Shown here piece by piece: positions 25,306-48,834 of a stretch of DNA of 64,000 nt (the first letter of the stretch is position 1; each line of letters begins with the position of its first letter). The DNA is from Hormiphora californensis (lineage: Eukaryota > Animalia > Ctenophora), in assembly GCA_020137815.1 (NCBI GenBank), contig CM035359.1, forward strand, positions 4,650,001-4,714,000. The letters are read 5' to 3'. Made by a program: the position numbers and the translations under genes. The notes beneath the pieces were generated by a model. That model was given only the letters and a program-made list of their open reading frames with translations, ran no database searches and was not told the DNA's origin.

Positions 25306-25512
25306 AGTAGTATAGAACTGGTGAACTGACGTCAAATTTTGATTGGCACGCTGTCAGAACTGGTTAATTGGCGTCACATTTTGATTGTCACGGTATCACA
25401 ACTGGTGAATTGGCGTCACGATTTTCACGATATCACAAGTGATGAATTGACGTCACAATTCTACTAATGCACAATACTGTAGTATGAGAGAGAAGGGGGA
25501 GGGGTGTAAATA
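25306..25512 (+). repeat. Left terminal inverted repeat
   Basis: Reverse complement of 48650-48834 apart from a few substitutions and ~22 extra bp; internal TGACGTCA/TGGCGTCA repeats. Confidence 0.95.
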
Positions 25513-25557
25513 CCAGGTGACAGTGATATGCTCATTTCTTAACTTTTCGTTTCTGAT

Positions 25558-26076: not shown

Positions 26077-26119
26077 GTTAATCAATGAAACTTTTATTTT
26101 TATTTAAAAAAAACTGAGT

Positions 26120-27200: not shown

Positions 27201-27234
27201 TAAAAGGGGTCTTATGTAGAGTATTTATAGTGTT

Positions 27235-28268: not shown

Positions 28269-28870
28269 TGCCAATTAAATTCTTAGCTAACCATAATACA
28301 ATAGTTTATGGTCAAACTGGAGCAGGGAAAACGCAATTTATTTTGCGAGTAATTAGAGAACGTTTAATTGAACCCTTTCCAGAAAACATATTTTACATGT
28401 ATTCTGTTGAACAAGACTTTATGAAAGAACATGCTGAAATTACGTTTATCAAAGGATTGGATTTCTCACAGGTTGACACGAGTAAACCAAGTATGCTAGT
28501 TATAGATGATCTGTTGCTAAAACTCAATAAAGAAGTAGCTTCGTCATTTATTATGGGATCTCACCATCAAAAAATCAGTTTGTTTTTTATAACTCAGAAC
28601 CTTTTTCCAAATTGTGAAACCTTTCGAACAATGTCTGCAAATACTCATTACTACGTATTACTTTTTCAAAATCAACGCAATTTCCGACAAATTAATACAT
28701 TAGCACGTCAGGTTTTTGTTGGTAAAGATGTAAATCGAATTCTAGAAGCCTATAAAAGAGCCTGTCAATCACCTCGTGGCTTTATTTTGCTAAGTTTTTC
28801 CCCGCTACTCCCTAACGAGCTTACTGTCACTACAGACTACTGGCAGCCATGGTTAAGCGTGTACCTCTAA
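28268..28870 (+). CDS. A32/FtsK-like packaging ATPase
   Basis: Walker A GQTGAGKT, Walker B LVIDD, SHH..ISLFFITQNLF. Confidence 0.93.
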   Translation: MPIKFLANHNTIVYGQTGAGKTQFILRVIRERLIEPFPENIFYMYSVEQDFMKEHAEITFIKGLDFSQVDTSKPSMLVIDDLLLKLNKEVASSFIMGSHHQKISLFFITQNLFPNCETFRTMSANTHYYVLLFQNQRNFRQINTLARQVFVGKDVNRILEAYKRACQSPRGFILLSFSPLLPNELTVTTDYWQPWLSVYL

Positions 28871-29160
28871 AACCACGGCGATCAAAGAGACTACAAAAGA
28901 AGAAGAGGAATACGAATAGTACTGGAATCCGTGCACATAGATTTATATTGAAGAAATTTGTTGATTCATCACAGTCAAAAAGAAAAGAAATTATTCGAAA
29001 CGCACCAGCTGTTTTCTTTACAGTTATTCGAAAGATAAGCAAAAAGGCACCAACGAAACGTCAAAAGTTAAAGCATGCAATACTTTCAGCCAAGGCTATA
29101 AAAGACTATGTGTTGCGAAACAGTAGCAGTGTTGCCTCCCTGATTAAATCGGTGCTGTAA
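28849..29160 (+). CDS. Small Lys/Arg-rich protein, candidate virion core protein
   Basis: 103 aa, highly basic, overlaps the ATPase stop. Confidence 0.6.
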   Translation: MVKRVPLKPRRSKRLQKKKRNTNSTGIRAHRFILKKFVDSSQSKRKEIIRNAPAVFFTVIRKISKKAPTKRQKLKHAILSAKAIKDYVLRNSSSVASLIKSVL

Positions 29161-29162
29161 AG

Positions 29163-29435
29163 ATGAGTCGATTTATTCTTTTACCAATGGATGATTCTGA
29201 TAATGAACGTACCATTCAACTCCCACCCAACATTTATAGTGCACCAAAAGGAGACAAGAACTTGATTCGTTTGTGTTCAACTGTGTTTGAGATTAAAGAT
29301 GGAAAAATACATCATAATGGAATAGATCTTGAAATTCCATTCCAGCAATTTTTAGATGACACTTCGAAATGTAAATTTTTAATTAAGTATGAACCTGTAT
29401 ATGATATTCTTAGTTCTAATGGTTACCAATTTTAA
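29163..29435 (+). CDS. Polinton hypothetical protein, 90 aa
   Basis: Intact ORF abutting the previous gene. Confidence 0.55.
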   Translation: MSRFILLPMDDSDNERTIQLPPNIYSAPKGDKNLIRLCSTVFEIKDGKIHHNGIDLEIPFQQFLDDTSKCKFLIKYEPVYDILSSNGYQF

Positions 29436-29445
29436 AACATGTTTT

Positions 29446-29886
29446 TTATTTTGTAAAAATTAATTTGCAGATAGATACAATTTCATTTTTTTCATAATCA
29501 CTTAAAAAATCATCTACGCTTAGTCCTATAGAAAATATGTAAATAAAATGCATGCAATGTAGTCCACACCACGGAGTTTCGGGATGCTGCACAGTTATTG
29601 AGACATAATTACACTTTTTGAACTGGTCCGCCAAGTCTGCAAACGAGTGGGGGAAAGAAGCATCATATGGGGAACGGCCAAAGGAATCAAAAAAGAAAAT
29701 TTCATTGTTTTTTATAAACCAAACAACCCATTGTTCACCTTGCTCATGATGATTCTCTGTGTTACTGATGAAACAGTAATTTGTTTTTCTTGAGACTGGA
29801 ATTTTACAGGAAGGATATACTCCAAGAAAGTTTTTCTTGGTGTACAAGTTATCTTTTAAAATTGAGTTGAGCTTCCGAGCATTCAT
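29446..29886 (-). CDS. Adenain-like cysteine protease
   Basis: FLGVYP, ISNT...GEQWV, FFDSFG, VQ...WCGLHC; the expected catalytic His reads Gln. Confidence 0.9.
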   Translation of the reverse strand: MNARKLNSILKDNLYTKKNFLGVYPSCKIPVSRKTNYCFISNTENHHEQGEQWVVWFIKNNEIFFFDSFGRSPYDASFPHSFADLADQFKKCNYVSITVQHPETPWCGLHCMHFIYIFSIGLSVDDFLSDYEKNEIVSICKLIFTK

Positions 29887-31335
29887 TCGATAATTTCAAC
29901 CACGCGATCACCATTTATTTTCACCAATCTATCATACAATGCATAGATTATCAGAATGACATCCTTCTCAGGAGCAGATTCCAGTTCGATTTCCAAGTTT
30001 GTAGAACCAATTTTTTCGGGGCTTAAGTAGCCATGCTGTGTCTTTCCGATTCTGTCTGGCTTCAAACTAATTCCAACCATAAAGTTTGATTGAAAATTGT
30101 ACTATTTATGAGACAAGATCCTTTTTCAGAAATTCCAATACTGGAATAAAGCTGCTGCAAAAACCTACTTTCGTTATCATAAATTAGTTTTCCGTTGCTG
30201 GTAAAGGGTTTAGTTGTTAATGGATCAGAAAAATATGGTCTACCATCAACATGGAGCTGGAACCGTGTGAACGGGAGGAACGAAAAGGGGTTTCCCTTCA
30301 AATCACCCTGGAAATGATCTGTATACTGTAGACAGAAAAAAGCATGATGGGGAAGCTTGTTATCAGTAAACAAATTGTTGAGTTTTATATACTGACCATT
30401 ATCGCCAATTGGTTTTACTATCAACTCTGGTTTGGGATGTAAAACGATGCTGCTTCTTTCGCTAATCGTTCTTCAATCAAGCTTAAAAAAATCGGCGAAG
30501 GTTTCAAAAACGTGGTCTTCAGAAACACATCAGTTATAACAAGTGAATTACCGTTATCTGTGTTTTCCATAAGGATAAAAGAATCTTGATTCTTTGTTAG
30601 TGTAATTCGCATATTTAAATTAGAGGTAGAGCTTTATGTGAGTTTAATAGCGGACAGTGGAGCTTAGCTGTTGATGTAAATGGATTGAACAGTGCACGTC
30701 TCCTCTCGATACCAGCCTTATTTGACGCAAGTTTAAGTTTTCTCTGTGCTCTTCTTTCATCTGCTGCTATTTGTTCTGCAGATCTAGTTTCACCTCCACC
30801 TTCACCTTCTCCTCCAGTTACTTGGTCGGGTATAACATCTTCTTCGAAATCCAGACCAGCAAGAGTTGTATCATCTGAGTCCTCTTTTGTTAAACCAGTG
30901 TCCAACACAAAGTTTTGTGTTTTTTTCAAATAGTCTAAGCGGTTTGGATCTGTGTTAAATATTGTATTGAAGTATGTTGTGTAGGCATAACTGTTACGCA
31001 TAGATTGCATAATATCAGTCCGATCGGAGATATTTACTTCCACCATTCCCCATATTGCATTCGCTATATTATTAATGACAGTAATTTGATTTGCTACTGA
31101 CACACGCCTCTCCACTGCTGCTTTGAAGTTTAAAAGTTGTAACAACATCTATATTCGATAGCATTCCTTGTGGCTGTGGTGGAATGACAAAAGTTGTGGG
31201 ACCATATTTTGAAATTGTGTCTCTTGGGTAGATTTTCAGTTCGTAACAGTCTTCAATGGATACGTTTGAGGAAGGTTTATCCCACAGAAGCAGTTCGTTT
31301 GACAGAGCTTCGGGACTCTCTGTAAACGTCCTCAT
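29883..31335 (-). CDS. Major capsid protein (double jelly-roll), split over five ORFs by frameshifts
   Basis: N-terminal NELLLWDKPSSNVSIED..ELKIYP, internal GDLKGNPFSF, C-terminal IIYALYDRLVKINGDRVV; expected size and position. Confidence 0.85.
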
Positions 31336-31627
31336 AGTCTACCTTTCTTTGGAAAGGGTCGGTTTCGAGTGTTTACACGTCTCTTTCTGTTAGAATTCGC
31401 TATAGCGTTTGTGGTGTGCTCTACTGCTTTAGATGTTAGCCCTTTTATAGCCTCAGCGGCAAGGGGGGCAACTATTGGTAAAGCACCCGTAGCAATGAAG
31501 AAAAAAACGAACCTATCCCCTCACCTTCTTGGTTGTACACATAATAACCATCTCTATCTAACCCTTTACCATGTTGCATCATGATTCGGCGGTAAGAAGG
31601 TGTGTTTTTAAATGTAACAGTCTCCAT
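31332..31627 (-). CDS. Small QxGxG-motif virion protein with amphipathic helix (one frameshift; absent from the ORF track)
   Basis: Manual translation METVTF...MMQHGKG...NQEGEGIGSFFSSLLR/GALPIVAPLAA...RKRRVNTRNRPFPKKGRL; the stop overlaps the MCP ATG. Confidence 0.7.
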
Positions 31628-32135
31628 AATTAATTGCTATAAGATTCATTCCCCTTTTATAGTTGAGCAATGTCAAGTGTAACAACAGTATCAAAGAAAC
31701 TAAAAAAAGAACAAGCTCACCTTTTAAATTTCTAATTGAAACTTCAAGATAAGCGAACTGATTTACATCCAACTTTGCATACGAAGGTTTTTCCCATTCA
31801 AAATGACAATACTTATCATCATGTTTCAATGGCGCAACGGCTAGCAATCTCGATTTCATTCCATTCAGAAAATTCCATTCTACAACATTTAGGTAAATAA
31901 ATCCTATCGTTATTTCTGTCTGATCAATAACTTCTGATTTAACAAGTGTCTTGTTAAAAAAAGACAATATTCCATCTTCATCATATGTAGCATCCAGCGC
32001 CTTAGGTAGTTCAACAAGTTCAATACCTTCCCCTAATTTAATATTATATTGAGTAGTAACACCAACTCTTTCAAATATCAAAAAAACAGAATCACTCAAT
32101 TTCAAGTTAAGAGCAACATTTTCAACATCTTTCAT
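31608..32135 (-). CDS. Minor capsid protein (penton)
   Basis: GFIYLNVVE...LNGMKSRLL...FEWEKPSYAKL...FAYLEVSIRNLKGELV matches the Polinton penton C-terminal pattern. Confidence 0.8.
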   Translation of the reverse strand: MKDVENVALNLKLSDSVFLIFERVGVTTQYNIKLGEGIELVELPKALDATYDEDGILSFFNKTLVKSEVIDQTEITIGFIYLNVVEWNFLNGMKSRLLAVAPLKHDDKYCHFEWEKPSYAKLDVNQFAYLEVSIRNLKGELVLFLVSLILLLHLTLLNYKRGMNLIAINYGDCYI

Positions 32136-32363
32136 AACGACGAAAAATATCTAAACGATTTCTAATGTTTTGAGCAGCAGGAAATGTCAAGATTTGATTG
32201 TTGTGTTTCAATTTTACAACCATATTGTTTGAAGATAAGGCTCCATAGTAAATAGATTTGATTGCAACGCCTACATTTCCCCAAAGATACTGGATCAATG
32301 GATGTTTTTAGCAAAGCTGGATTACCATACTTTCCACCGACAATAACATGTTGTACAACCATA

Positions 32364-32918
32364 TTATAAAGCAGTTGTTTTGAAGGCTGACTCAGTAGGG
32401 ATAGTCTCACGGTAAGTGTGTTGTTGTGTTAATAACTTAACTGCTTTTATAGCATCTGGTAGTCTGTTACCAAACACAAAACTAATCAATACCAGAAACG
32501 AAAGACCAATTAGCGAGGAAACTACCGTTTTGTCTTCCCATCGACAGTGCACTAGTGGTTCTGTGTAATTAATAGAAAGAGGTAGCAAATTATCCATCCC
32601 TATACTTGTTATGGGACAATAAAACGTTACTCTATCTAAAGTTAATTGAACGTCTCCTCTGCTGTATGTCAGATGCATAGGATGTCCGTTGATTGATTTT
32701 GTTGTCCAATCAAATGTATTAATAGTTGTATTTGGGAAACGATACTGCTTATAATCACCACTTTTATTCATTAGCATAAGTTCAATATATTCACCCCTTC
32801 TAAGAACCACCTGACTCCATTTACCATCACCCATACTCATAAAGTTTGTGCAATTATTATCTTCGAATACAACAACCATGCTATTAACTAGCAATTGAGA
32901 GAGAATGTATCCAAACAT
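32364..32918 (-). CDS. Predicted small type I membrane protein, 184 aa
   Basis: Hydrophobic N-terminus, beta-rich middle with NCT and NYT sequons, TM-like VVSSLIGLSFLVLISFVFG, short tail. Confidence 0.55.
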   Translation of the reverse strand: MFGYILSQLLVNSMVVVFEDNNCTNFMSMGDGKWSQVVLRRGEYIELMLMNKSGDYKQYRFPNTTINTFDWTTKSINGHPMHLTYSRGDVQLTLDRVTFYCPITSIGMDNLLPLSINYTEPLVHCRWEDKTVVSSLIGLSFLVLISFVFGNRLPDAIKAVKLLTQQHTYRETIPTESAFKTTAL

Positions 32919-33042
32919 TTTGTTTCTTTTTTTCTGTTACTATCTCCCTTTTATATGATGACGTTGCGTTACCTAACGCGTTAGCCGATGAACATAAGTC
33001 TCACTTTTTCTCACTTCTCATTTTGCACGTTTTTGTTTCGTT

Positions 33043-33495
33043 ATGGCTGCTCAGTTTACAGACATGTGGATCAGCTCCGTTATTGGACATCTATTTGAAA
33101 AAGTTGTGGATGCAACAGTGAAGAATTGCCCGGGACATCGATTCAAGTGTGTGGTGCTTCATCGCTGTCAACAACTCTCACTCTTTGATAAACTAGTAAT
33201 GCACTTTGAATCAGCAAAATCAGAAATTATTGAGGAACTCCCAAAAATATTTGAGGTGCATGCCAAACTATTTAGCTGTGACCCCAGCCAAAAATCAGGG
33301 ATGATTTCTTTTGCTGTAAATTATCTACGAGTCGCAACACCCGAATCGATATATTTTGGAAAGGTATACAAAGAACAATATGAAGTCTTTATACAAGAAG
33401 AAGAGAAATCTAAGAAGAAAAAGAGAAAGACTGTACCTGTCACAGATCCTGTTGGTCAGGCATTTAATCAAACATTTGACTCTTACATCTTTTAA
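33043..33495 (+). CDS. Polinton hypothetical protein, 150 aa, Cys/His cluster and NLS-like KSKKKKRK
   Basis: Intact ORF convergent with polB. Confidence 0.65.
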   Translation: MAAQFTDMWISSVIGHLFEKVVDATVKNCPGHRFKCVVLHRCQQLSLFDKLVMHFESAKSEIIEELPKIFEVHAKLFSCDPSQKSGMISFAVNYLRVATPESIYFGKVYKEQYEVFIQEEEKSKKKKRKTVPVTDPVGQAFNQTFDSYIF

Positions 33496-33544
33496 TTTGA
33501 TTTGTACAAATTTAAAATCATTTATCTAATTTGAGAAAAAGTGT

Positions 33545-36500
33545 TTAATTATTTCTAAAATGCCCATGCGGACGAGTTGAAACTCCATCACTCAAAATAA
33601 ATCGCTTGTCATCATACCTAGTGAGTCCTACTTTACAACTGTCGACAGTAAAAATTGTATGTAAAAATGAACGAAACGAGGTTTGACGTATCATATAATC
33701 CTCCTGATCTCTCTCACCCAGTAAAACTTGACGATACAGATCATGTGTCAGTTTTTTAGCAACATACTTTTTTACACCAGCTGCAGTGTTTTTTTGTTCG
33801 CCCTCAACTGTCAATAAACTGTACATTTTAGAACGTAAACCCACAAACTCTGATATTGGTATGCCATGGGTTTCGTCTTTAAATTTACCGACTACTGCCT
33901 TATTTTCCACTGAATGCAGTGGATGGTGTTTTTCATAATTGCTAAAATCAAAGAACCCTTTCAACTCACTCAGTTGTCCATATAAATCCTCTGTTTCAAT
34001 ATAGTACAAAAAGCTGTCTGTATCTGTAAAGCAAAGCACGCTCCTCGGAAATGATGGTTTAATTACGTCGTAGTGGAACCGATACATCAAAAGCTTCGAG
34101 AGCTCCAAAACTGTGAAACCAACCTAAAAAAACTAGTTTTAGAGAAAATTTGTAGAAAATACTTGCATACTTTTTGTTAAATGCAGCACATACTTACATA
34201 AATTGGTTTGTTCAAAACAATGTTCGTTTGAGTGAGTTCAACTCCCACTAAATTTTCATCAAAGATAGAAAATCGTTTGTATGTTGGTTTTGAATGCTGC
34301 CAGTTTGCGCTTTTTGTGTTGTTCACGAGAACAATTTTGATTCTGTTGCGGAGATTTTCCATAGTTTTACCTGAGAATAAAAGAATTTGATAAACAAAGT
34401 TAATTGTTTTCCTAAATAACTTACCAAAAAACGCGTTATTGAGAAGTTTGTAGTAATCTTTTTCAAATGCATCCTGAGCATTCTGTCGCAATTTGGTGTT
34501 TTCAGAAATGTAAGGTTCAATCCATGCCTTTTGACGAAATGATATCGCACGATGAACTTTGGTTAGAATAACACCATTCATCAAATAAAACTGCAAGTTT
34601 CGAACATGCACCACATATTTCAGTTTTGGAAACAAGTTTGGTGCGAGTTTTTTATTTGAAAATTTTAGTGTTGCTCCCCGTAATTCACGAATTTCCCTGA
34701 AAGGTTTTTTTTTTTTTTTTTTTTTTTGTAAGTAAATGAATTTCAGAAATATCTGTCCTTAACTTACGCTGATTTGGGTGAAATCATAGACTCCTTAATT
34801 ATCAAAGGGTTGGGACAAAGTGGATAGTCAGATGTAGAGTCATGAATGCTTTCAGGAATTTCAATATCAACTTCAAATATTAATCCTATATTTGACTCTG
34901 CGTCGAATTCCAGTATTTCTTTAGATGACCAAGAACTACAATCTTCCCATTTAAATCTGTCCATTGGAACTTTTTGAGACATTGCATATCCATAAAGGTT
35001 CTGAAACATTTTTTGGTCATAATTAGTTAGGTTTTTGAAATTTAAATACATACATTTGCATCCAAGTAAATAAGGTAGCTTTCTGGTTTCGAGGGATCAA
35101 AGGAAGTGAGTGGGTTGTTAGCGACAGCATGACGATGTGATATTACGGATATTCCTCCCCTGATACCACTCTCAATCATTTGGAGCATATCCATATCTTT
35201 TAAAATTTGGAGTCTTGTACTGGTTAGTTTAAGACAAGCATCATATGTAAGACTAGGAAGCGAGATATAGTGGAGAGGTTCCAAACCCATTCTGTTCCAG
35301 CACATTTCTCTATATCGCTCCATAACATCAGCTAATAGCAGAACATCTGTTATTACGTACCTGTGAATAGTTTTGTCTTGGTATAGATTACACTAGTGAG
35401 CATAAAATACTTACAAGTTGTGTAGGTCTCCCAAATTTGCCAGATTAAATTCACTCCAAACAGTCTTTACGTGACAAAAATCTTTGTCGGAAAGTTCTTC
35501 ATCCGTAAGATCGTTATAAAAGGCCTCTTTTGAGGGTAAGGACTCCTCAAACTTTTTCACACTGTCAATGTAACTATAAGGATACACCCCTTTTCGACTC
35601 AAAAGTTCGAGTTTGTTGTTGCATCCAGAATAAAATTTGTCGATAAATTCCTTAAGATTTTCTAGTCTTTGAAAACCATCTTTTGTGAGGTTTGAAACCA
35701 GCTTATCGAGGGAAGCAGACAAATGTTGTGCTGAGTCAATAAACCTGGAAAAAAACTTTAAAGATGGGAAGGTAAAATTGAATTAAATACTTACCTAAAT
35801 TTTCCTGATGAAACGCTAGAGTATTTTTCCATACTATTAGGAATAATACGGATTAAACTCATGTCATCTTCATGCTTAGCCAACGCTCTTATCACCATAT
35901 GAACATCATACGAACTGAAAAAAATATTCGCTTTAGTTGCTGTAGGTAAATTATCGTATATTAGTCTTACCGAAAATTATGGAACACAATAGGTAAGCGT
36001 GTATCCATCTGTCTCTCTAGGTTGCATCTGCTGTGTGCAGCACCAATATAGCTACCAGTGTAGTGGCAATGATCACGCACTTTTTTAAGGTGTTTTGTGT
36101 TTTGAAACCTTTCGTTACACAAGTAACACATTTTGCTATTAATGAAACTCTTTTTCTGCTCCGACGACAGCGGTTTGATTGGTTCGTCAGCTTCTAAGAG
36201 TGGTCGCAACCGTTCATACTCCTCATACATAAACAAAATAAAGGTCTCTTCAACATCATTGATACCATCATCTCTCCATACAATGACATCTTTTTTATAT
36301 TCTTCATATTCTGTAACTACTTTGTAAGCGAATCCACAAGCCCTGTGTTTTCTTGTTTTTGTTGTGACTGCTTCTATGTTACCAGTGTCCTCAAGATATG
36401 CCTCAAAATCTGAAAAAAATATGGTCATGATAGCAGAACTCAATACTTTAAATTCTTACTACATACCAGCTACGATGTATGCAGGACATTTAATCATCTT

Positions 36501-38089
36501 TCTGTAGCTTTTAAAGAAAATGAAGTCATCGGATGGAAATTTACAGCCTTGGACTCGGAACTTAACACAGTTTGGTTCGTGTTGTAAAAGCAAGTCATAT
36601 CTGGTAAAGCCATGAAAACACCTGAAAGTATTTATTTTTAGATTATTGTTCTAATCATGTGTATTATATACGTACCGTGCGCAATGAAATTTTTGTCTAT
36701 TGGTGTTTGACTTCCTCAGTAGGGTATCGATACACTTTACAAGTACATAGTGTGAAGATTGTTCGCCTGCAAGCAACAGTACAGTAACCAATGTTTGTTC
36801 AATATCAGTGCTTGAGCTGACACTAACTGGATAAAACTCCTTCTTTTCTTCGTCATATCCAATAACGTTGATGCGTACACTATAAGAAAAGAAATGTCAC
36901 AACATCATCTACCCAACTTGAATTCAACATACTTGTTTAAGCGTTCAAATTTAGGAATTTGTTGTAGGGGTACAGGATAGTCAATACCATCTGATATGAT
37001 CTCATTTTCAAACTGTTTATAGTATGTCACTCTGTTTGCATTTTTATCATTGTAGGGATATGGATGTTTTGCAGCTAACACACACCACTTTAGACACCTG
37101 AAACGTAAAAAGTTTTTGATTTTTAAATTATTAGATATATAAAAATAAACTTACTGAAAGTCTTTGTTTTTGATGTTTAGTATACATCTCTTTGCTTTAC
37201 ATGCTGCAGGAAGTGGGTGATAACATCCTCCCACTAGCGGGTTGTACTTTGTTATGTTTATATGCAGATTTGAAAGTTTGTCCAATCGCCAACCTGATCC
37301 TGAAAATTATCTATTATAATATAGTACTTGGAGATTTTGAAATGACTCATAAAAATAAATATTACCATTTCGAACAAATTCTTCTATACGCGAGTAAATA
37401 GTAGAGAGCTGCTGATCAACTGCATCTTCAATTTTTGTAGAAAGCAACACTGAAGTTATTTCACCACGAAAATAGACACAATCCTCCTTGAATTCATCAG
37501 TTGCTTTATTCATGGTACCATAAACGGAAATATGGAAACGAAATGATTTTAACAGATCTTGTTGCAATCTAAAGTAAAGAGTGATTAGGTAAGGGTTATT
37601 TAGAACATTTTGAGCGTCTTTACCTTAGTATCTCAACGATCCTTGGTATTTCCTGCTGTAGAGATGGGACAAGTTCTCCTTGTAAAATATCTGGTAGCTC
37701 AATAATTCGAAAATTGTCCCCAAGTGCACTTGATATCACTTTTCCAGATCTACGTTTTACCAAACAGCGTCGTTTTGCCAAAGAACAGTTATTGTTGTAA
37801 TGATATTGTCTAGCTGATCCAGTTGGAAACTTTATTCCACAGCGATCACAGGGGTAACTAAAAATAAATTTTATATAATTAAGTTACATAGATACAATAT
37901 ATTTATGTATATTTACTTTTTCCTACTGCAATTAATTAGGTGATTGTCGAGTTCATCGCCTGTTAAGTCCAATAATGTTTCACATGTAGGACAGAAACAT
38001 CCATCGCCACAACAGCTTTCAAGATGATTTCGCAAATTGTAATAGTTCGTAGTTTGTTCACATTTTGGACATTTTATCTTTCTAACCAT
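33545..38089 (-). CDS. polB: Protein-primed DNA polymerase B, 15 exons, 1243 aa
   Basis: Exons 38089-37917, 37857-37624, 37568-37366, 37299-37155, 37097-36933, 36879-36676, 36621-36467, 36409-35971, 35914-35795, 35744-35415, 35360-35054, 35000-34768, 34696-34425, 34370-34198, 34123-33545 (3732 nt). Splicing restores NGSGW, VADFE, HNFRSYD, RKGVYPY, YVITD, YLDANNLYG, KLLNNAFFGKTMEN and FTDTDS. Confidence 0.93.
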
Positions 38090-38247
38090 GCTAGAGATTT
38101 TGAAAGGGTAAAACTTAGGTTAATGTTATAAAGATACACTATTTTTACACAAAAAAACGACTTTAAATTATTAAAATAAATCATAATCATATTAAGCAGT
38201 CCTATATATCTCTTGGTGGTTGTAGAATAGTGTTGGACCTATTTTGC

Positions 38248-38616
38248 TCATTCTTCACTCGCAATTGCCTGAAAAAATTGTTTTGATTGAAAATAGGAAA
38301 TTTTAAAATACCTACAAATATAGTTGAGGGGTAAAAATACTTACAATTATAGTTGAGGGATAACCCTCCCGCTCCATGAGTACAAGTGACAAAATAGCTT
38401 TCCCTACCATAGAGAGCAGCTGGGGAAACAATGGGGCATCAAAACATACAAGGTTACCAACATCTGATTTCATAGATCTGAAATAATTGGGAACTTAAGC
38501 GAAAGAAAATAATATACTCACATAAATTTTGGAAATACTTACAAGTATTCCCTGGGGTTGGATGACTTTGTCTTTTTTTTAATTGCAGAAACTATAAAGA
38601 CGTCGGTAACAGCCAT
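38248..38616 (-). CDS. 3-exon 75-aa protein, OB-fold/SSB candidate (paralog 1)
   Basis: Exons 38616-38543, 38477-38345, 38268-38248: MAVTDVFIVSAIKKKTKSSNPREYLSMKSDVGNLVCFDAPLFPQLLSMVGKAILSLVLMEREGYPSTIIAIASEE. Confidence 0.75.
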
Positions 38617-38760
38617 AGCTAAGATATAGAGGATTTTAACAGTGTTTAAAATTTTTTTTAAATTCAAGCTCCATTTAATTAATATAACAATGTATTGTAC
38701 TAAAGTAACATCTTCACATTTTCAAACTCATGCAACAATTCATTTTTCTTCTTCCCTGGT

Positions 38761-39136
38761 TCACTCTTGACTGAGAACTGCCTGATAGGATAAAATGCAG
38801 TGTTAAAAAAAACAAGTGTTAAATAAATTCGAACTTACAACGAAGTAATACTACTAATGTGAAAAAATAATTCGAACTTACAATTATAGAATCTGGGTAA
38901 TCGTCTTTTTTCAATATTACTACCGTTGCTAGTTCTCCCTCTCTCAATTCATCAAAAATGTTGCTGTCAAACGATACAAGGTTTCCAATGTCCGTTTTAA
39001 CTTTCCTGAGGACAAAAATTTTTTTAAAAAAAATACAAATCCTGTGAAAAATATCAACTTACAAATAATCACGAGGAGTTGAGGTCTTGGTTTTCCTGGT
39101 TTCAATCTTAACAATAAAAATTTCTGCTACTGGCAT
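38761..39136 (-). CDS. 3-exon 72-aa protein, OB-fold/SSB candidate (paralog 2)
   Basis: Exons 39136-39063, 39005-38882, 38781-38761: MPVAEIFIVKIETRKTKTSTPRDYLKVKTDIGNLVSFDSNIFDELREGELATVVILKKDDYPDSIIAVLSQE; same intron positions as paralog 1. Confidence 0.75.
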
Positions 39137-39221
39137 TGCTAGGTTTTCAAAAGGGGGTTAATAGCACTACAAAAATGTGAAACGAAACAGAAAAACACAA
39201 TTTGAGAAATTAATAATGATA

Positions 39222-39511
39222 CTAGCGTGTGTTTGATGCAGTGTCTCCTTTAATTAAATTTAGTAATACAAGAACAATGTTCATTCGCTCTTGAAGCAAG
39301 CTCTCGTGACGCCGCAAACTTGAAGACCTTATTCGATAATTGTGAAGGTATTCTTGCGTCACACGAAGTGCATCCAGGTGTTCATGTATTAAAGTGTTAC
39401 TGAGGAAAGGGGTGTTATAAATAATTGTTATTTTATAGAAGAACTGTAGTAAAATTATACTCACGTTCTATCTTCTTCCTCATAGTCACTCTCACTATCA
39501 CTGATGTTCAT
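39222..39511 (-). CDS. 2-exon 74-aa acidic/helical protein
   Basis: Exons 39511-39465, 39399-39222: MNISDSESDYEEEDRTNTLIHEHLDAL...LLQERMNIVLVLLNLIK. Confidence 0.62.
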
Positions 39512-39589
39512 TGCAAACTAATAAAAATTAAATGGTCAATTGAGCTGATAAAAACAAACAAAACCAGAATGTAAAAACAAGAAATTAAT

Positions 39590-39842
39590 TTAACAAAATC
39601 TATAGTCTTCATTGCATATCAATTCCACAAGATCGGTTACTAATTCCCATCGTTCTGTTAATAACTGCTGGAAATGCTCTTGATTGCTCGCACCAAATAA
39701 CTGTCCATGGGTGCGCCCGAGTTGGTTAATTAGGTCAACAATTCGATCGTTCCTGAAATTTTTCATTATAAATTATATCATGATTTAAAGAAATTGTTGT
39801 TACTTACATAGCGTCCACATCATAATCTTCGCTTGTGTGCAT
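39590..39842 (-). CDS. 2-exon 65-aa helical protein, likely paralog of 39222-39511
   Basis: Exons 39842-39808, 39752-39590: MHTSEDYDVDAMNDRIVDLINQL...LLTERWELVTDLVELIC. Confidence 0.62.
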
Positions 39843-39938
39843 ATTGTGCTAAGGAATTAAAGTAAGGTTAGAATACAGTGTCGCAAAAATCATGATCATT
39901 TCTTCTGCTCGATTCTAGTTGACGTTTCAGCTCGTATA

Positions 39939-40520
39939 ATGTGTGTTTTGATATTATTAGACGGTGTTAATTTGAGAAGTGGGTTCATTCCCCGAGAAGT
40001 TGTTATAGCATTTCGCTCATTTGGAGTTATCAGAGTTCGTCAATATTTCTTATCACCGAAACCGTACCTATCACTGACAGAAAATGATAAAGAAACTGAT
40101 TGGTGAGTCAAAAAAACAAATTTTCATAATTTTTAAAAAAAAAAATCGCTACCTATCATCACAGGTATACGAAGCATGTGTTGAAAGCAACTGGATTGTT
40201 TGAGTCGATCGATTGCGCATTACCATACAACACAGTATTAGAAATTATCGCTTGTCAAAGAGAGAACGAAGTTATTACATATGGTTCTACATCATTGCGG
40301 TAAGTTTTGAAATTCTGTGAAGTATTTTTCAAATTTTCAGTATATTTTTTCAAATTTCAGATTCCTCCATCAAATGGGATTTACAAACGTGCGCGATATA
40401 AGTGGAGCTTTTCCTGTTCAACCTACGCAAAGCTGTGGTGAAATGCATTCTCCAATTTTCTGCCCGTGGGCAAAGTATGAACTTTTGCTTCCTAAACTTG
40501 TTGATGCTAATTTGTTATAA
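39939..40520 (+). CDS. 3-exon 152-aa Polinton accessory protein, possibly a degenerate exonuclease-like fold
   Basis: Exons 39939-40102, 40165-40299, 40361-40520 join in frame: MCVLILLDGVNLRSGFIPREV...SPKPYLSL...ITYG...SCGEMHSPIFCP. Confidence 0.68.
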
Positions 40521-40932
40521 CTGTAGAAGCTATGAGCATGATTATGCATACATGTATAATATACAACAAATAATTAAACACTTCATTTCAGAATTATCTT
40601 GAATCAAACTAAAAATAAAATAAATGTAAAAATAAAATATAGTCGGATTTTTTGAAGTTGTCACCCCCTGGGTGGTGGATATTTTAATTAGCACGCCAGA
40701 AACTTTTTTATTTAAAATTTTTTTTCTGGGTCTCATACCTTTGTTTCTTGACCAATTATTTAAACAAAAAAACTTTACGAACTCACAAAATTATGCTCTT
40801 TCCGATGATAGGTGGCTTTTTTGTCGAAACGTAAGAGCAAATGGTGACTCTCATGACATTTCACAAACAAATATGGCGCTGAGTTTGAAAAGGGTTGTGA
40901 CAATTTCAAATTATCCGACTTTACACTTTTCC

Positions 40933-41555
40933 TTAATTAATTTCCTTCATTTTCTTTAAAAATTCTATTCCATCGTTTATCGCATCGTCAATTAAGGCTC
41001 TTTTTCTTTTTAAATCATCTATTGATTTTTTCATTGAAAGCTGAAAATATGATTAATTTAGTTAATAAATTTGAAAAAAGAAGAAGAAAAAAATATGTGT
41101 ATTGATACAAATTAAACTTACATGTATATCGGATGCATTATCACAGTCGGTTTTCTGCGTCTTACGTACATATTTCCTGAAAAATATTGGTTAAGTCTTT
41201 TTTCATTATTTACAAAGATCAACAATATCATAACAGTAGTATCGTACTTTACCTTTTTGGAGGAACTTGTGCTGTTTCCTCCTCACTTATTTCGTTTTCT
41301 TCTAACGTTTCCTGAAATAATTTTTGATGTTAAGGATAGATAGTTTGTTGGATAAATTTATAAAATACAATTCACAACATTCTTACACTTGTCAGACTCA
41401 TCCCTTTATTCCTCTCATTTTGACTTGTTTTTGGTATCTTGAATCTGAGATTAATTTTGTGTTAATAAAATATTAATATTTACAATAAAAATTACGAGTT
41501 TTACTTACTTATTTACGATTGGTAAACGGGAATTCTTTAACATTGCTGTTGCCAT
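40933..41555 (-). CDS. 5-exon charged protein with NLS-like PPKRKY
   Basis: Four short GT-AG introns; exons join in frame from MATAMLKNSRLP to FLKKMKEIN. Confidence 0.6.
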
Positions 41556-41689
41556 GACTACAGCTAAGAAAAATTGAAAGTGGTTAGTGTTATGGTAATA
41601 AAACTATTGTAACAAAATAAAACGGTTCATTTGGTTTTGAATAAATTGTTTAATTGGTCACACAAGTAGAAATAAAATTTTATTTGCTA

Positions 41690-43173
41690 ATTGGTCATTC
41701 AAGTAGAAGTCAATTGGTTGTTTCAAGTATAAACCAATTGACTTCTACTTGAATATTCATTGGTGGCTCCTGCAGAACCAAGTGAATTGGTTCTGCAGGA
41801 GCACAGGTCCCTACAGGACATAAAAAGATTGCTCCCGTAGGGACAATTACTGCACATGCAGAAGAGTTCGGATTCTCCAACATATTTGAAATATCAAATA
41901 CAGTTAATTGGTCATTCAAGTAGAAGTCAATTGGTTAGGTCAAGTATAAACCAATTGACTTCTACTTGAAGATTAATTGGTGGCTCCTGCAGACCAAGTA
42001 AATCGGTTCTGCAGGAGCACAGGTCCCTACAGGGCTAAAAAAAGATTGCTTCCGTAGGGACAAATACTGCAGATGCAGAAGAGTTTTGCTTCCAATTCTG
42101 ACTAGGACAAGAAAATCCGCAGGGTTCTGCAGGAGCACTTTACGCTCCCAACATATCTTTTGATCATCCACACTTCTCAGAACATCTCGTGGCGATCAAT
42201 AACCTGAATTGAAAGATATGGTTAGAACTAGCTACGTCCAAACTAAATTATCAACAGCAAAGTCGAAACATGTACCACAACAGAAAATTTACCTTTACAT
42301 GGGTGGATTCGTTGAACTTGAAAAAAGGTTGTCTTTAAAACCATATGACATTCTATGTGGGAATATGTTGGTTACATTTGTGGAGGGGAGGACTATTTTG
42401 CTATAATTAGAGGAAAATTAGCGAACTTTGTACACGAAAAAATTTCAAAATAAAAGTATACATTATATAAAAAAATTGTCCAATCTCCAAATAATCTGAG
42501 CTGCTCTAGCTTCTCTGTCTGTTTTCTAGTACTGAAAAACGTGATATTGGTTAGTTTTTTGAAATATGAATATATGTATTAATTTTTCAATAAATATGTC
42601 GTTGAGAAATAATCTTTATAAAACTTACTCTTTTGCCGAAGTTTTCTTATTTTTTGAACCTTTTGAAATTTCAGCTCTATTTCCTCTAACACTTTCAGCT
42701 CTTGTTTGAGCAAGAGCTCCTCTCTATTTGCCTGAAAAAGTTTTAGATTGGAAAATCTTCCTAAAAACAAAACAGAAAATCAGATTCTACTTAGTGATAT
42801 ACGTACCTTTTTCACCTTTTTGGGAAGTTTCCCCAACACAATCTCCTGTTGTTTTCTGCATCGCTTGCAGCGTTTCTGAAGGAGTGGTATGTTAGCACAA
42901 AAAATCTTGGATAGATATAAATTGAAGGTATATTTTAACTTACTGGGGTACCGTTCTTGAAAACAACCACTGGCAGCTCACATTCTATCGTGCACTGAAA
43001 GTTATGAATTTGAGTGGTTGTCAAAAAATATGTGCTATCTGTTATGATATCTTAATTGATATTCTAGAAATAATAAATTCAATACTTACTTTTGGTTGTT
43101 GAGGTTTAGGGACAGTGTTGTTGTTGTTGTTGTTGTTGAGGGCATTCTCAAATGTTGAGTCTAATTTGTACAT
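41690..43173 (-). CDS. Multi-exon hypothetical protein (Cys cluster, coiled coil, duplicated 3' exons); 3' end uncertain
   Basis: Starts MYKLDSTFENALNNNNNN; exons CTIECELP, KRCKRCRKQQ, ANREELLLKQEL bounded by GTAAG/TTTCAG; ~215-bp duplication at 41690-42085. Confidence 0.45.
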
Positions 43174-43397
43174 AGCTATGTCTATAGAGAGAGAGAGAGC
43201 TGTGAGAGGTTAATTAGAAAATACTCAAACTTATGAAATTTGAGATTGGGGCAATAGGGGATAAGGAAACTTCAGAGAGGTTGTTGATGACTAATTAAAC
43301 TAAATTAAAAAAATTCAAATATTAATTAAAATGTCCCTAAAATCTGGAAGTGGGATCCAGGGATCCAGGGAGAGGGATCTCACCAATCAAGGAGGGT

Positions 43398-43979
43398 TTA
43401 CACCTGGGAGGGGATGTACCCGCATGCTACTAGTAGCACCTTTTTATGGGCATCCCCTTCCTGGTGCTCCCTCCTTGATTGGTGAGAGGTGTGCCTGACA
43501 TCACACCATCTGCACACCATTGCATCATCTTCCGGCATGTCCGAACCTGAAAAATGACCTAGTTAGATTGAATTAAGATTTGTAGCTACAATTTAGAATG
43601 AAAATCAAAAGCAGAACTTACAATAATGGGAGAAAATCAGTCGCCGCCAGAATCGGCGGTCTCCCTGCCATATGACCGGATATAGCTCCCGCCAGTTGCT
43701 TGGGAGGGTCTGGGGGGTCCGGTCAAGGACTGGCAGGGAGACCGAGGCCTCTCCAACAACATCGAGGGTCAAGACACCACTTTTATCTGAAAATATTTTG
43801 AGTGTAAGAATTCTGAAAGTTTAAAAGATTTAGATAATCATCCAAATGATTTAAAACAACTAGTTACCTTTGTTCTTTTGATGCTTTTTCCCCCCGATGT
43901 GTTGAAGGGCCTGCTTCCAATTCTGCCTAGGGCAGACAAACCCGCAGGGGCCACAGGTAAGAACTTGTACTTGGTCCAT
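43398..43979 (-). CDS. 3-exon 141-aa protein with two U1/matrin/JAZ-type zinc fingers
   Basis: Exons 43979-43868, 43786-43622, 43546-43398; CGPCGF...QHIGGKKH and CRWCDV...EHQEGDAH. Confidence 0.72.
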
Positions 43980-44096
43980 AGCTATAGAGAGAGAGAGAGA
44001 TGAGAGATGATAATTAGGAAGAGACTCATAGTTATGAGATTGGGGTAATAGGGGATAAGGAAACTTCAGAGAGGTTGTTGATAGGTTATATATATA

Positions 44097-44269
44097 CAGT
44101 CGGACCTCGATTGAACGACCCACGATTTAGTAACACCCCGATTTAACGGCAGCATAATCTTCCCCCCGATATAGAAAATTAACAGTATTTGACCCCGATT
44201 TAGCGGACACCTCGAGTTAACAGACAAAACCATTTCCCTCAAGGGTGGCGTTAAATCGGGGTCCGACTG
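44097..44269. mobile_element. Tc1/mariner-like MITE nested in the Polinton
   Basis: TA|CAGTCGGAC...GTCCGACTG|TA. Confidence 0.85.
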
Positions 44270-44399
44270 TATATAATACATATATTAAATAAAATATAAT
44301 TCGTCTCCTCTGCGTCACTTTGTCATTGTCAACCTAGGGAGAGGATGTTAGGAACAGGTAACTTCCAAAACACATCATAACTCACGAGTTTAATCTAGC

Positions 44400-45029
44400 G
44401 GTTAAAACATCAATTTGTTCCTGTAACACCTGACAGCTGGTTCGGAGGCGATCAGTTTCCTGAAACGATGTATAGATTAGATTCTAAATTAACTAGAGTG
44501 TCGATATTACCTTCGAAGAATTTCCAGGTGTACATTCCAGCCATTCAGCCCACGAGCTAGTCTGGATGGGGTTAGTTTCCTGAAAAGATGTTAGATCAGA
44601 AACCAACTCAGAAGAATATATCATTCACTCCAAGGGTTCAATAGATCAATAGTTTGGTAACCCCCCTATATACAGAACGACGCCATACAGACCGGGTTAG
44701 GGTTAGTCTGTATGACGTTGTTCTGTATGTAGGGGGGATTCCAATATATTACCTCTGTGATTCCCAAAGACGGGAAATTTTTAGGGTCATTAGCTGGTGG
44801 GGGTTTAATCCAGCCAGCCTGATCCATCTGAACTGCTTCAGTTGGCGTGGGCGTGGGAGGAGGTAAAACAATTTGTTGCCCGGTCGCATTCTGATGTGGA
44901 GAACCTGGTGCATATGCAAATTAGAATTAAATTTTGAAAAAAAAATCTGATAACCTTACCCCAACAGATGCTTTGACCAAGTTTAATTCGCATGTTCCTC
45001 CCTCTGCCGTCTCTTAACTTCTTTCCCAT
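44400..45029 (-). CDS. Multi-exon hypothetical protein; 3' end uncertain
   Basis: MGKKLRDGRGRNMRIKLGQSICW|GSPHQNATGQQIVLPPPTPTP... with GTAAG/CAG junctions. Confidence 0.45.
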
Positions 45030-45843
45030 AGCTAGGTACAGAAGGTGATGGTGAGGCAGGGGTTTCGGATAGAGCGGTATAGGGCAGGGAGAAATAAACA
45101 AGTCAAATGAATTCTAAATGTGTTATCCTGGTCCAATCTGGTCAACAAAAAAACCTCTTGACGGTCACCTGAAATCTGAAAAAAAATGAAAAAAAAAGAG
45201 CACTGTGAGAGATATTTACCTGTTATAACACGCATAGCTCGTATCTTACCTGTGGTATCATTGTTATTGTAAATTGAGAGAGGAGAAAGAGGGAGGGAAA
45301 GAGAGAGGGGAGAGAGCGTGTAAGAAACAGTGAGAGAAAGAGTGAGAGAGCGAGAGAGAGAGAAAGGGTGAGGGCCTGGTGCATATGCAAATTAGAATTA
45401 AATTTTGAAAAAAAATCTGATAACCTTACCCCAACAGATGCTTTGACCAAGTTTAATTCGCATGTTCCTCCCTCTGCCGTCTCTTAACTTCTTTCCCATA
45501 GCTAGGTACAGAAGGTGATGGTGAGGCAGGGGTTTCGGATAGAGCGGTATAGGGCAGGGAGAAATAAACAAGTCAAATGAATTCTAAATGTGTTATCCTG
45601 GTCCAATCTGGTCAACAAAAAAACCTCTTGACGGTCACCTGAAATCTGAAAAAAATGAAAAAAAAGAGCACTGTGAGAGATATTTACCTGTTATAACACG
45701 CATAGCTCGTATCTTACCTGTGGTATCATTGTTATTGTAAATTGAGAGAGGAGAAAGAGGGAGGGAAAGAGAGAGGGGAGAGAGCGTGTAAGAAACAGTG
45801 AGAGAAAGAGTGAGAGAGCGAGAGAGAGAGAAAGGGTGAGGGC
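44904..45843. repeat. ~471-bp near-identical tandem duplication
   Basis: Units start at 44904 and 45375. Confidence 0.9.
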
Positions 45844-47051
45844 AGAGGAGAAAGAGGGAGGGTGAGAGAGAGAGGAAGTGAGGGAGAAAGAGAGGGTAGG
45901 GAAAGAGAATAAGAGAGAGAAGGAGAGAGAGAGAGGAAGAGTGAGAGAGCAGATTTTTGTGATAAGTCTTGACTGGATTAGGAGATTTCTTTTTAAAAAC
46001 AACAACAATTAACAAAGTTTTGAAATTTTGAAGAAAAAACAATTGAAAATTTTCAGTGTTTGATGCGCAGCTTTTGAGAGAGAGCGTGCAGAGTGTACTG
46101 TTAATTGTGGTTAAAGTGCGTTTCAAACGACTTGACCCGAGATTCCTGGAAATTCAGGATTTCCCCTTTGTAAATACACGCGCAATGTACCAAATTCCAG
46201 GAATCACGGGTCAAGTCGCTTGAAACGGACTTTAGAGTCAGAGCATGGTCCAAACAGCGCGAATTTTGTGAAAATTGGTTGAGATACGTGACTTGGGAAG
46301 GGTTAAAATGTGTACCATGTTAGATACTACTGTAGATACTACTGTAGATACTACTGTACCATGTTAGATACTACTGTAGATACTACTGTAACTACATGCC
46401 ACTGTGTCACCTCAATACTAGTAGGGGGCGGTAGTGGGAAGTTGGGTCTAGAATTTCAAATTTAACCACCTGACATTCAGCTGAGAAGTAGTGAAATCTA
46501 CAGCAGAGTGTATCTCTGTCCAGATCGGACTATTGAGGAGAGACGAGAGAGAAGAGAGAATCTACAGACACTTGAAAAACCCTGAGAGACAGTTCGAACT
46601 GAAGAGAGGGGTTATACAGTTTTTGTGCAATGGCCCCACTAATAGTTAGGATTTTCGATTTATTACGTGTCCACCTGGTAATTTCTAGGATTAATCCCGA
46701 CATCTACTTGTGTGGCCACAATGTGGACTCCACATATTTATTATCTAACCAGGAGTGTGTTTTATAAACTTGCACACAGAGCATAGCTCTCATTTATTAG
46801 TGCTATCCTCCAATCTGCACGCCCATGATCACATGAGGTCAGATTATGTTCAAACCATGTCAAACCGTGTCAAACCGTGTCACACTAACCTTATTGGATG
46901 TAGATGAAGCATGAGGACGGGTTGATAGATCTTGCTGCAGGTTGTTGTTGTTGGGTGATTCTTCAGAATCTGGTCCTGGGGGAGAGGGATTATTAGGGGT
47001 ATCAAGCAGTGTGATCTTACACGAAGAGAGTGAGAGAGAGAGAGAGAGAGT

Positions 47052-47171
<120 letters not shown>

Positions 47172-47271
47172 AAAGTGAACTTTAGTGATACTATATTCTC
47201 TTAGTATCCCGATCAGATCATTATATCTAGATACCTTTCCCCTGTAAGTGTTGCATATCATATATGATATA

Positions 47272-47444
47272 CAGTCGGACCCCGATTTAACGGCCCCCGA
47301 TTTAGCGGCACCCCGATTTAACGGCAGCATAATCTTCCCCCGATATAGGAAAATAACAGTATTTGAAACCCGATTTAGCGGACACCCCGATTTAACGGAC
47401 AAAACCCTTTCCCCCGAGGATGCCGTTAAATCGGGGTCCGACTG
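47272..47444. mobile_element. Tc1/mariner-like MITE nested in the Polinton
   Basis: TA|CAGTCGGACCCCGATTTAAC...GTTAAATCGGGGTCCGACTG|TA. Confidence 0.88.
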
Positions 47445-47516
47445 TATATATCTATTATGATTCTCCCTGAAAACGAAGTTTGGCCCATTTATCTTTTCGT
47501 TTAAGCTCATTCCTCC

Positions 47517-47559
<43 letters not shown>

Positions 47560-47646
47560 TTCATGTAGTACAATGTATCATCAAGGGTGAGAGTGAGAGA
47601 GTGACTCAGGTAATAAATATAGTTAGTGTTCTGTACGTTCAATTTG

Positions 47647-48184
47647 ATGCCACCGAAACGAAAAGATGTTGTTGTCTGCCCACTTAGTCAGTTGGCGGAT
47701 CTGGACCCGGTCAGGAGGGAAGAAGAAATGAAGAAGAGAAAAACGGATCAGAAATGTTTGAGACAAAGAAAATGTCGGGCTAAAAGGAAGGCGACGGACC
47801 CGCTGGCGCTCCTAAGTGTCGATATATTTGGCTGCTCTATGACAGAAGAAGAAGAAGAAAAGAACACTGTAAAACAGCTCAAAGGTTAGTAGAGACGAAT
47901 CTTTTGACTATTTGGTGAAGAGAAAAGTCCAGTTGCAACCCAGCTATTTTGAACTTCTTTTGATAAGAAATTCATCCCTACTAGTTGAGATAAAAAACAT
48001 GAAACAAAAACATAAGGTGGAGATGGCGGAGATGGCGAGAAAGTTGAATTTGGCGCTCGGGGAATCGGAGAGAATGAAAGTAGAGAATGAAGATTTGAAG
48101 CGAGAGTTAAGCGATAGAGCCAGGGAACACCCAGTGACGGCGGACATGGCACTGAATATGCCAACTTTAGAAGGTACAATTTAA
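47647..48184 (+). CDS. Basic-region plus coiled-coil protein, bZIP-like (one frameshift near 47882)
   Basis: MPPKRK...EEEMKKRKTDQKCLRQRKCRAKRK, then heptad-rich LVEIKNMKQKH...MKVENEDLKRELS. Confidence 0.55.
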
Positions 48185-48649
48185 ACTATCTCAATTACAA
48201 TATGTGGGACGGGGAGTTTTGTACAGATTATAGAACACTTAATATTTCAGAAATGGGGTTTGTGGACGATTTGTGAAGTGCTGAAGCCCAAACTGCTCTG
48301 ATTGGTGATATATCTAACGGCACGTCTACTGTGGGAGATGTGACTGAGACAATACCTGTGCGGGGAGGGAGACGGTAGCGTAGCTGATAGAACTTCGATA
48401 GTACTCCATTGCAGTACAGTGCGGTTGTAGTTGAGTTTGTAGGGCTGTTTGGTAGGGAGGTAGGCGATCAAAAACAAGAACTGGTGGGGAATATGGGGTT
48501 TGAACCGATCTTTATACTATCATCTGACTAGAGATAAAATCTCTCTGTGAGGGTGACTTAAAATCTTGCTCATGTCACCCTTACACAAAGATCTCTCTAT
48601 ATCGGGTATCACATAGAGCACTGTTTACTCTACCGTTATACTAAATAAA

Positions 48650-48834
48650 TATTTACAACCCTCCCCCTTCTCTCTCATACTACAGTATTGTGTATTAGTA
48701 GAATTGTGACTTGTAATATCGTGACGCCAATTCACCAGTTGTGATACCGTGACAATCAAAATGTGACGTCAATTAACCAGTTCTGACAGCGTGCCAATCA
48801 AAATTTGACGTCAGTTCACCAGTTCTATACTACT
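48650..48834 (-). repeat. Right terminal inverted repeat
   Basis: Ends ...CAGTTCTATACTACT followed by TTCTTG. Confidence 0.95.

Follow-up and report, generated by a model that had tools for sequence, protein, structure and literature searches.

The 64,000-nt stretch of Hormiphora californensis DNA analyzed here (contig CM035359.1, positions 4,650,001 to 4,714,000; referred to as the window, in whose coordinates all positions are given) contains a 23.5-kb mobile element of the Polinton/Maverick type (25306..48834), in which ten intron-containing genes have their start codons 1-8 nt downstream of an acceptor-like YAG (Y, pyrimidine). Eight of these sites have no usable donor nearby, and addition of the host spliced leader (SL) by trans-splicing is the most likely explanation for them, with a probability of roughly 0.6 as judged from the sequence. 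The host spliceosome would join the ctenophore SL at the donor-less YAGs, and the resulting capped messages would carry a 5′ untranslated region (UTR) made up of the 44-nt leader plus 1-8 nt.

Acceptor-like sites upstream of the start codons

The nearest AG upstream of the ten ATGs (38089, 38616, 39136, 39511, 39842, 39939, 41555, 43173, 43979 and 45029) lies at 1, 2, 2, 6, 6, 8, 2, 2, 2 and 2 nt, respectively. An earlier sequence-only reading of the window had reported an acceptor-like AG 1-8 nt before the ATG of all ten spliced genes, and its coordinates and distances were accurate; it was likewise right that the open reading frames (ORFs) 25558 and 33043 lack the feature, their nearest AG being 34 and 44 nt away. 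In all ten cases the ATG is the first in-frame one of the exon-1 frame, and in eight it is the only one. Homologues begin at the same methionine for the protein-primed DNA polymerase B gene (pPolB; homologue P0146) and for gene 39939 (P0158, P0159), and a relative of 39939 with 72% identity keeps both the start and the first intron, at which it also stops.

A bare AG close to an ATG means little, since it is found 0-8 nt upstream of about 45% of the other ATGs and of 6 of 13 starts of intronless genes in the same element. When a YAG at 1-8 nt and at least 65% pyrimidine in the preceding 20 nt were required, using a cut-off set post hoc at the lowest value among the claimed sites, all ten spliced-gene ATGs qualified, compared with 20 of 387 ATGs elsewhere in the spliced part of the element, 4.6% of 1070 matched non-coding positions and none of the 13 intronless starts, which were picked by eye. 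The ten sites represent about eight independent cases, as 38616 and 39136 are paralogues and 43173 and 43979 share about 110 nt of upstream sequence; for YAG alone (20% background), finding it in eight of eight cases has a probability of about 3e-6. Searches for DNA relatives (viral contigs; metagenome contigs, 80 loci at 41-51%; prokaryote genomes at 25-45%) gave distant pPolBs only, and none of the 24 loci that could be counted had the combined feature. Of 81 such loci, 26 had N-terminal cover and two of these were dropped because the ORF ran off the contig end; the 24 include six with the first ATG inside the aligned region and three near-duplicate pairs. The pre-ATG YAG feature is real and stands well above chance.

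Branch-like YTAAY motifs were found at 6 of the 10 pre-ATG sites and 18 of the 36 internal acceptors but at only 15% of 260 pyrimidine-matched unannotated YAGs (p=0.0016; four motif variants were tried, with p between 0.002 and 0.02). The paralogues 38616 and 39136 have just 12 of 24 exon-1 residues in common, and the DNA upstream of them does not align at a score of 40; both nevertheless retain TAG|C at 2 nt. Upstream of 41555 and 43173 a second, higher-scoring AG is located at 8 nt. The start at 45499 is a duplicate of 45029, and a possible eleventh spliced ORF (ATG 45261) has no AG in the preceding 30 nt.

All 36 internal acceptors are preceded, 45-110 nt upstream, by a donor scoring at least 4.3 (leave-one-out), whereas the best donor scores 2.9 or less at nine of the ten pre-ATG sites, and eight genes have none above 3.3 within 200 nt. 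The combination expected of a trans-acceptor, i.e. branch site, pyrimidine tract, YAG and no paired donor, is present in eight of the ten genes; it is absent at 39939 and ambiguous at 45029. The proposal of host SL addition, as made by the sequence-only reading, thus holds up as far as the host SL, the eight donor-less acceptor-like sites and the operon-like gene spacing of 72-157 nt are concerned, but the pattern does not reflect a single mechanism in all ten genes, because 39939 has a donor 69 nt upstream and 45029 has upstream donors and better acceptors.

The host spliced leader

A host copy of the ctenophore SL is located at 7311..7354 on the minus strand of the window and agrees in 43 of 44 letters with the SL described for Hormiphora californensis (PMC8527503; statements from the literature refer here to the accessible parts of the sources). 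No GT donor follows the leader, and 12-nt direct repeats about 330-350 nt apart surround it, so that an SL-capped RNA was probably retrocopied here. The presumed retrocopy (7020-7362, minus strand) lies inside a host-gene intron and consists of the full SL at its 5′ end and about 290 nt of other sequence. In run X1, which carries the same species label and is only guessed to be RNA (neighbouring host exons are uncovered), 516 contigs match the SL copy and their listed loose ends differ. Together with the published presence of the SL on 56% of Hormiphora Iso-Seq reads, that is, on more than half of the mRNAs (PMC8527503), it is very likely that the host encodes and uses SL trans-splicing. An Rfam scan gave nothing at gathering thresholds.

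Gene models of the spliced half

Splicing yields an open frame that closes in the last exon for each of the ten gene models, which together contain 36 GT-AG introns with a median length of 63 nt. The largest is pPolB (33545..38089, minus strand), with 15 exons, 14 GT-AG introns of 50-74 nt and a product of 1243 aa; its TAG (38091) is 1 nt before the ATG and the best local donor scores 2.9. Intron positions in pPolB coincide with alignment breaks against uninterrupted relatives. Its assignment as a protein-primed PolB comes from the last exon, which was matched by 3316 of 3768 candidates, several of them carrying PF03175; the gene's own Pfam match is weak (E 6e-4, below cut-off). The closest named relative is a Mnemiopsis leidyi gene model (63%). 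The pPolB fragments P0001-P0006 start near intron 12, some with intron-like N-termini, and we infer from these starts that relatives probably share this intron. P0146 and P0148 (Logan) are uninterrupted pPolBs of 1278 aa in the same 90% cluster as fragments starting near intron 12; judged from their sequences, they may represent the spliced RNA of a related element. Some distant pPolB loci also look intron-bearing (L039, L053, L065, L073), and an intron-bearing pPolB is therefore not unique to this element.

Upstream of pPolB, four small genes follow on the same strand. The 3-exon genes at 38248..38616 (75 aa, TAG at 38619) and 38761..39136 (72 aa, TAG at 39139 with a weak acceptor score of -3.1) are the paralogues mentioned above; both have their TAG at 2 nt and no local donor. 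The 2-exon gene at 39222..39511 (74 aa) has its TAG at 39518, 6 nt before the ATG and 72 nt past the stop of gene 39842. The latter (39590..39842, 2 exons, 65 aa) heads the cluster that ends at pPolB; its TAG at 39849 (6 nt) is accompanied by a branch-like CTAAC, and the best donor within 200 nt scores -4.9. Transcribed divergently from it is the 3-exon gene 39939..40520 on the plus strand, encoding 152 aa (119 aa with an alternative acceptor).

The remaining genes are again on the minus strand. Gene 40933..41555 (5 exons, 108 aa) has TAGs at 41558 (2 nt) and 41564 (8 nt) and poly(A)-type hexamers 220 and 244 nt past its stop, and gene 42506..43173 (5 exons, 110 aa) has TAGs at 43176 and 43182, with 110 nt of upstream sequence paralogous to that of 43979. 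The 3-exon gene 43398..43979 (141 aa, TAG at 43982, 2 nt) is zinc-finger-like, with a weak zf-U1 match below cut-off, and gene 44315..45029 (5 exons, 127 aa) has its TAG at 45032, with an acceptor score of -0.5. Directly upstream lies a possible spliced ORF of 51 aa (45032..45261, minus strand, intron 45249-45176), the stop of which is the TAG located 2 nt before ATG 45029. None of the small spliced genes was named by Pfam above cut-off, and exons of 39939 and 39136 had no homologues among longer proteins.

Proposed arrangement in operon-like units

From 39842 to pPolB, the distances between the stop of one gene and the acceptor of the next are 72, 83, 142 and 157 nt, the two shortest spacers being T-rich. 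Such short spacers between same-strand genes are what an SL-resolved operon would show, and the median spacing in C. elegans operons is about 100 bp (PMC7986045). In the upstream cluster the gaps amount to 222 and 333 nt, with about 205 nt of the latter contributed by a miniature inverted-repeat transposable element (MITE). An AWTAAA hexamer is present within 250 nt past the stop in all three unit-terminal genes (pPolB, 39939 and 41555), as against one of seven internal genes. The strand arrangement and the poly(A) hexamers at the unit ends suggest that the spliced half is organized as about three TATA-less units, not one: from 45.3 kb to 41555, from 39842 to pPolB, and 39939 on the other strand. 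In such a unit, a common polycistronic pre-mRNA would be resolved by SL addition into single messages for the genes lying 72-157 nt from one another, comparable to the RFC140/flp operon of Hydra. We regard this co-transcription as short SL-resolved operons as a further step beyond SL addition, and its chances, estimated from the gene layout, as slightly below even. The sequence-only reading had proposed one early unit or a common leader from 45-48 kb; this fits poorly, since the transcript would need to continue beyond the poly(A) signals that follow 41555 and then through the antisense gene 39939.

Weighing of alternative explanations

Several observations weigh against SL addition. No read joins the SL to any pre-ATG site; against 33400-45250, run X1 gave two contigs, one a partial match of 49 nt and the other a MITE; neither is at the sites, which is uninformative either way. 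In the SL retrocopy the first ATG of a long ORF lies about 150 nt past the leader, and short SL-to-ATG spacing is therefore not established as a host rule. The lack of donors at nine of the ten sites matches random sequence, in which about 68% of windows are without one at 3.3; it thus excludes local short UTR introns and leaves splicing itself undemonstrated. Moreover, the sites differ from the internal acceptors: their scores range from -3.1 to 8.7, compared with a leave-one-out median of 11.0, TAG is used in 9 of 10 versus 5 of 36, and C follows the AG in 8 of 10 versus 1 of 36, so that the eight donor-less sites read TAG|C/T, unlike the internal CAG|G. Two genes deviate altogether. Upstream of 39939, a strong donor at 39862 (score 8.2) and the sole CAG among the ten delimit a predicted 69-nt cis intron in the 5′ UTR (39862..39930, plus strand). 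As this donor coincides in part with the antisense branch-like motif of 39842, and a local donor of this strength has a 2.7% chance per random window, use of an ordinary cis intron by 39939 is probable rather than certain on sequence grounds. In Ciona the first acceptor is the preferred target of trans-splicing, and such sites frequently possess a donor as well (PMC11155486); 39939 could accordingly still receive the SL. At 45029, strong donors (45219/45249) and better acceptors (45169/45176) are located upstream and the preceding TAG also terminates the 51-aa spliced ORF, which makes the mechanism at this gene ambiguous.

It has to be considered that most of the sites are not spliced at all, that transcription starts in the adjacent pyrimidine-rich DNA and that TAG-C-N-ATG is an initiation context or, at 45029, a stop-restart junction. 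The TAG|C departure is the best argument for this explanation, since 31 of the 36 cis acceptors of the element are CAG, as are 19 of 24 host cis acceptors (picked by eye), none of which reads TAG|C. The negative acceptor scores of 39136 and 45029 point in the same direction, as do AGCTATG at 45239, 45707 and 46788, where no pyrimidine tract is present, and an internal in-frame ATG of an intronless gene (32879) with the same TAG|C context. A purine occupies position -3 in all ten spliced starts and also in 11 of 13 intronless starts, and where the gap is 2 nt, as at six sites, the G of the AG may thus belong to an initiation context. Such a context would, however, not predict a gap varying from 1 to 8 nt, nor the enrichment of branch-like motifs at an intron-like distance, nor the absence of the feature from the 13 intronless starts, and with unspliced starts the spacers of 72-83 nt would need room for a TATA-less promoter and a terminator in addition to a 3′ UTR. 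We consider this explanation unlikely. Stop-restart coupling as a general explanation was rejected, since the upstream frame that closes on the TAG is short at the remaining eight such genes (1-36 open codons) and contains an ATG in only two of them.

Less likely still, the sites could be cis acceptors fed by a leader exon encoded by the Polinton, either a shared adenovirus-like one from 45-47 kb or local leaders. The search for a shared leader at 45-48 kb suggested by the sequence-only reading did reveal strong minus-strand donors without an assigned coding role (45219, 45249, 45687, 45717, 46889 and 47020), but these have acceptors of their own nearby (45176/45169, 45646 and 46976). For a shared leader of the adenovirus type, a single donor would have to share its strand and its transcript with every acceptor, an arrangement that was not found: one spliced gene is on the plus strand and hence unreachable, and the poly(A) hexamers after 41555 together with antisense gene 39939 stand before the pPolB cluster, for which a single 45-48 kb leader is therefore unlikely. 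A shared leader restricted to the 45029-41555 cluster is possible. The 69-nt intron of 39939 argues for local leaders, as does the first copy of a host gene with TSP1 repeats, where a CAG precedes the ATG by 11 nt and a donor scoring 5.5 is located 114 nt upstream. The absence of donors above 3.3 within 200 nt of eight genes, given the 63-nt median intron, speaks against them elsewhere. Local cis-spliced UTR exons, named by the sequence-only reading as what would overturn it, are indicated for 39939 but have no usable donor at the eight other sites. Similarly, the ATGs of the divergent pair 39842/39939 are indeed only 97 nt apart (acceptors at 39849 and 39930), yet the claim that this leaves little room for cis leaders does not apply to the plus strand, where the cis intron fits. 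A short palindrome (39890-39897) lies midway between the two divergent acceptors and could mark a bidirectional start.

For SL addition, the TAG|C form of the sites might be accounted for if it keeps them weak and thereby avoids cis-splicing to the last donor of the upstream gene, which is speculation. A more far-reaching proposal would be that in a ctenophore Polinton lineage the replication half was remodelled into operons with many introns and without TATA boxes, whose translation depends on the host SL and which use a distinct TAG|C trans-acceptor, while the virion half keeps TATA-driven intronless genes; this would amount to an SL-dependent early/late switch and to the first ctenophore operon. 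We put this forward tentatively and with less confidence than the co-transcription as operons.

Polinton boundaries and the two halves of the element

The element is bounded by terminal inverted repeats of 120 nt (25306-25425 and 48715-48834) with two mismatches between the arms, a 6-bp target duplication and AGT-repeat termini (AG...CT). In addition to pPolB, it encodes an RVE integrase with a chromodomain (PF00665, E 2e-14, Pfam; the gene is interrupted), a packaging ATPase (Adeno_IVa2, E 7e-5, above cut-off) and an adenovirus-type protease (Peptidase_C5, E 0.004, below cut-off). One capsid piece matches double jelly-roll (DJR)-like clusters at 0.97, although its recognition remained below the 2300 mark of the tool, and another piece, like a PDB search, gave no match. 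With terminal inverted repeats, protein-primed PolB, integrase, ATPase, protease and double jelly-roll capsid all present, the element belongs to the Polinton/Maverick group.

It is composed of two halves, an intronless one at 25.5-33.5 kb with TATA boxes and an intron-rich, TATA-less one at 33.5-45.3 kb. Integrase-chromodomain, ATPase, protease, jelly-roll capsid pieces and other genes make up the intronless half (25558..33495). Nine copies of YATAAAAG occur in the element, eight of which belong to the intronless half and are oriented like its genes (27199, 28061, 28751 and 29097 on the plus strand; 31449, 31661, 32451 and 32955 on the minus strand), and none precedes the ten spliced genes. 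Upstream of this box, between 27199 and 32955, an ACGTCA motif is found three times, and the same cyclic AMP response element-like motif recurs in the terminal repeats. Several genes of the intronless half are interrupted, whereas all ten spliced genes are intact. Frameshifts and stops break the integrase, the capsid gene and an ORF near the right end (27235-31338 and 47647-48184), owing either to decay of the virion half or to sequence errors; a flanking host copy at 23.8-25.2 kb is frameshifted as well.

Relation to known systems

Two components of the proposed mechanism have been published for Hydra, namely SL on transposon RNAs (PMC12220107) and an SL-resolved operon with a foreign gene (PMC3273482). 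The RFC140/flp operon resembles the present case in being non-bilaterian and in combining a foreign gene with a promoter-less spacer in which a polypyrimidine tract and AG receive the SL; it differs in that it is experimentally proven, bicistronic and formed by a domesticated gene beside a host gene (PMC3273482), whereas here up to five genes inside a mobile element are predicted from sequence. About 30% of the Iso-Seq reads from Hydra transposable elements carry SL, and Maverick is among the expressed families (PMC12220107); these are bulk counts, and the accessible text gives no gene-by-gene acceptors or operon layout for Mavericks. The nematode Mavericks (bioRxiv 10.1101/2022.07.12.499685) are alike in terminal inverted repeats, pPolB, integrase, ATPase, protease, capsids and an SL trans-splicing host. 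However, their core genes are described as intronless with introns in cargo genes only, while pPolB has 14 introns here; the accessible part of the preprint does not mention trans-splicing, SL1 or operons. For Hormiphora, the accessible text of PMC8527503 has no operons, no mention of Polinton/Maverick elements, and no acceptor consensus or SL-to-ATG distances. Beyond animals, SL has been found on transcripts of dinoflagellate RNA viruses (cited in bioRxiv 10.1101/2022.04.12.488082), and in C. elegans eri-6/7 Polinton repeats serve a different, non-SL type of trans-splicing (PMC11414722).

Adenoviruses, a related virus group, use a shared virus-encoded leader that is cis-spliced from one promoter, and several of their acceptors lie just before start codons. 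The present Polinton differs from them by having its genes on two strands, about three units and no donor for most of the sites.

Our literature search, covering main texts, returned no paper on SL trans-splicing of Polinton genes and no report of operons in ctenophores, and the supplements of PMC12220107 and PMC8527503 may bear on novelty; the accessible parts of PMC12221973, PMC12859917, PMC5580712 and PMC12220804 contributed nothing further on this subject. If SL addition is correct, expression of the polymerase of a virus-like element would hinge on host-specific RNA processing, and the element would thereby be bound to SL hosts and restricted in its horizontal transfer. The locus would also be a compact candidate for operons in ctenophores, and the contrast of virion genes that are intronless and TATA-driven with replication genes that are spliced and led by an acceptor would offer a handle on the timing of Polinton expression. 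Since more than half of the host mRNAs receive SL and Hydra transposon RNAs are known to do so, the surprise is tempered.

Further features of the window

On either side of the Polinton lies a copy of the same host gene (23346-25180 and 49624-50322, plus strand), in which thrombospondin-type repeats were recognized by eye without a Pfam match. Inside the element, three MITE-like inverted-repeat insertions (41660-42150, 44085-44290 and 47265-47450), the first of which is also present in one contig of run X1, and a 470-bp tandem duplication (44930-45683) were identified. A 62-aa ORF without a Pfam match at 42218-42403 (plus strand) resembles, as we take it by eye, ubiquitin, and an exon at 39593-39751 (minus strand) has a weak XPC-binding match (E 0.014, below cut-off); by sequence similarity the two are possibly Rad23-like pieces. 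Finally, upstream of 45261, the region 46470-47020 (minus strand) contains exon-like pieces with donors and acceptors, including an open, Asn-rich stretch at 46975-46890, which possibly belong to another spliced gene or represent leader exons.

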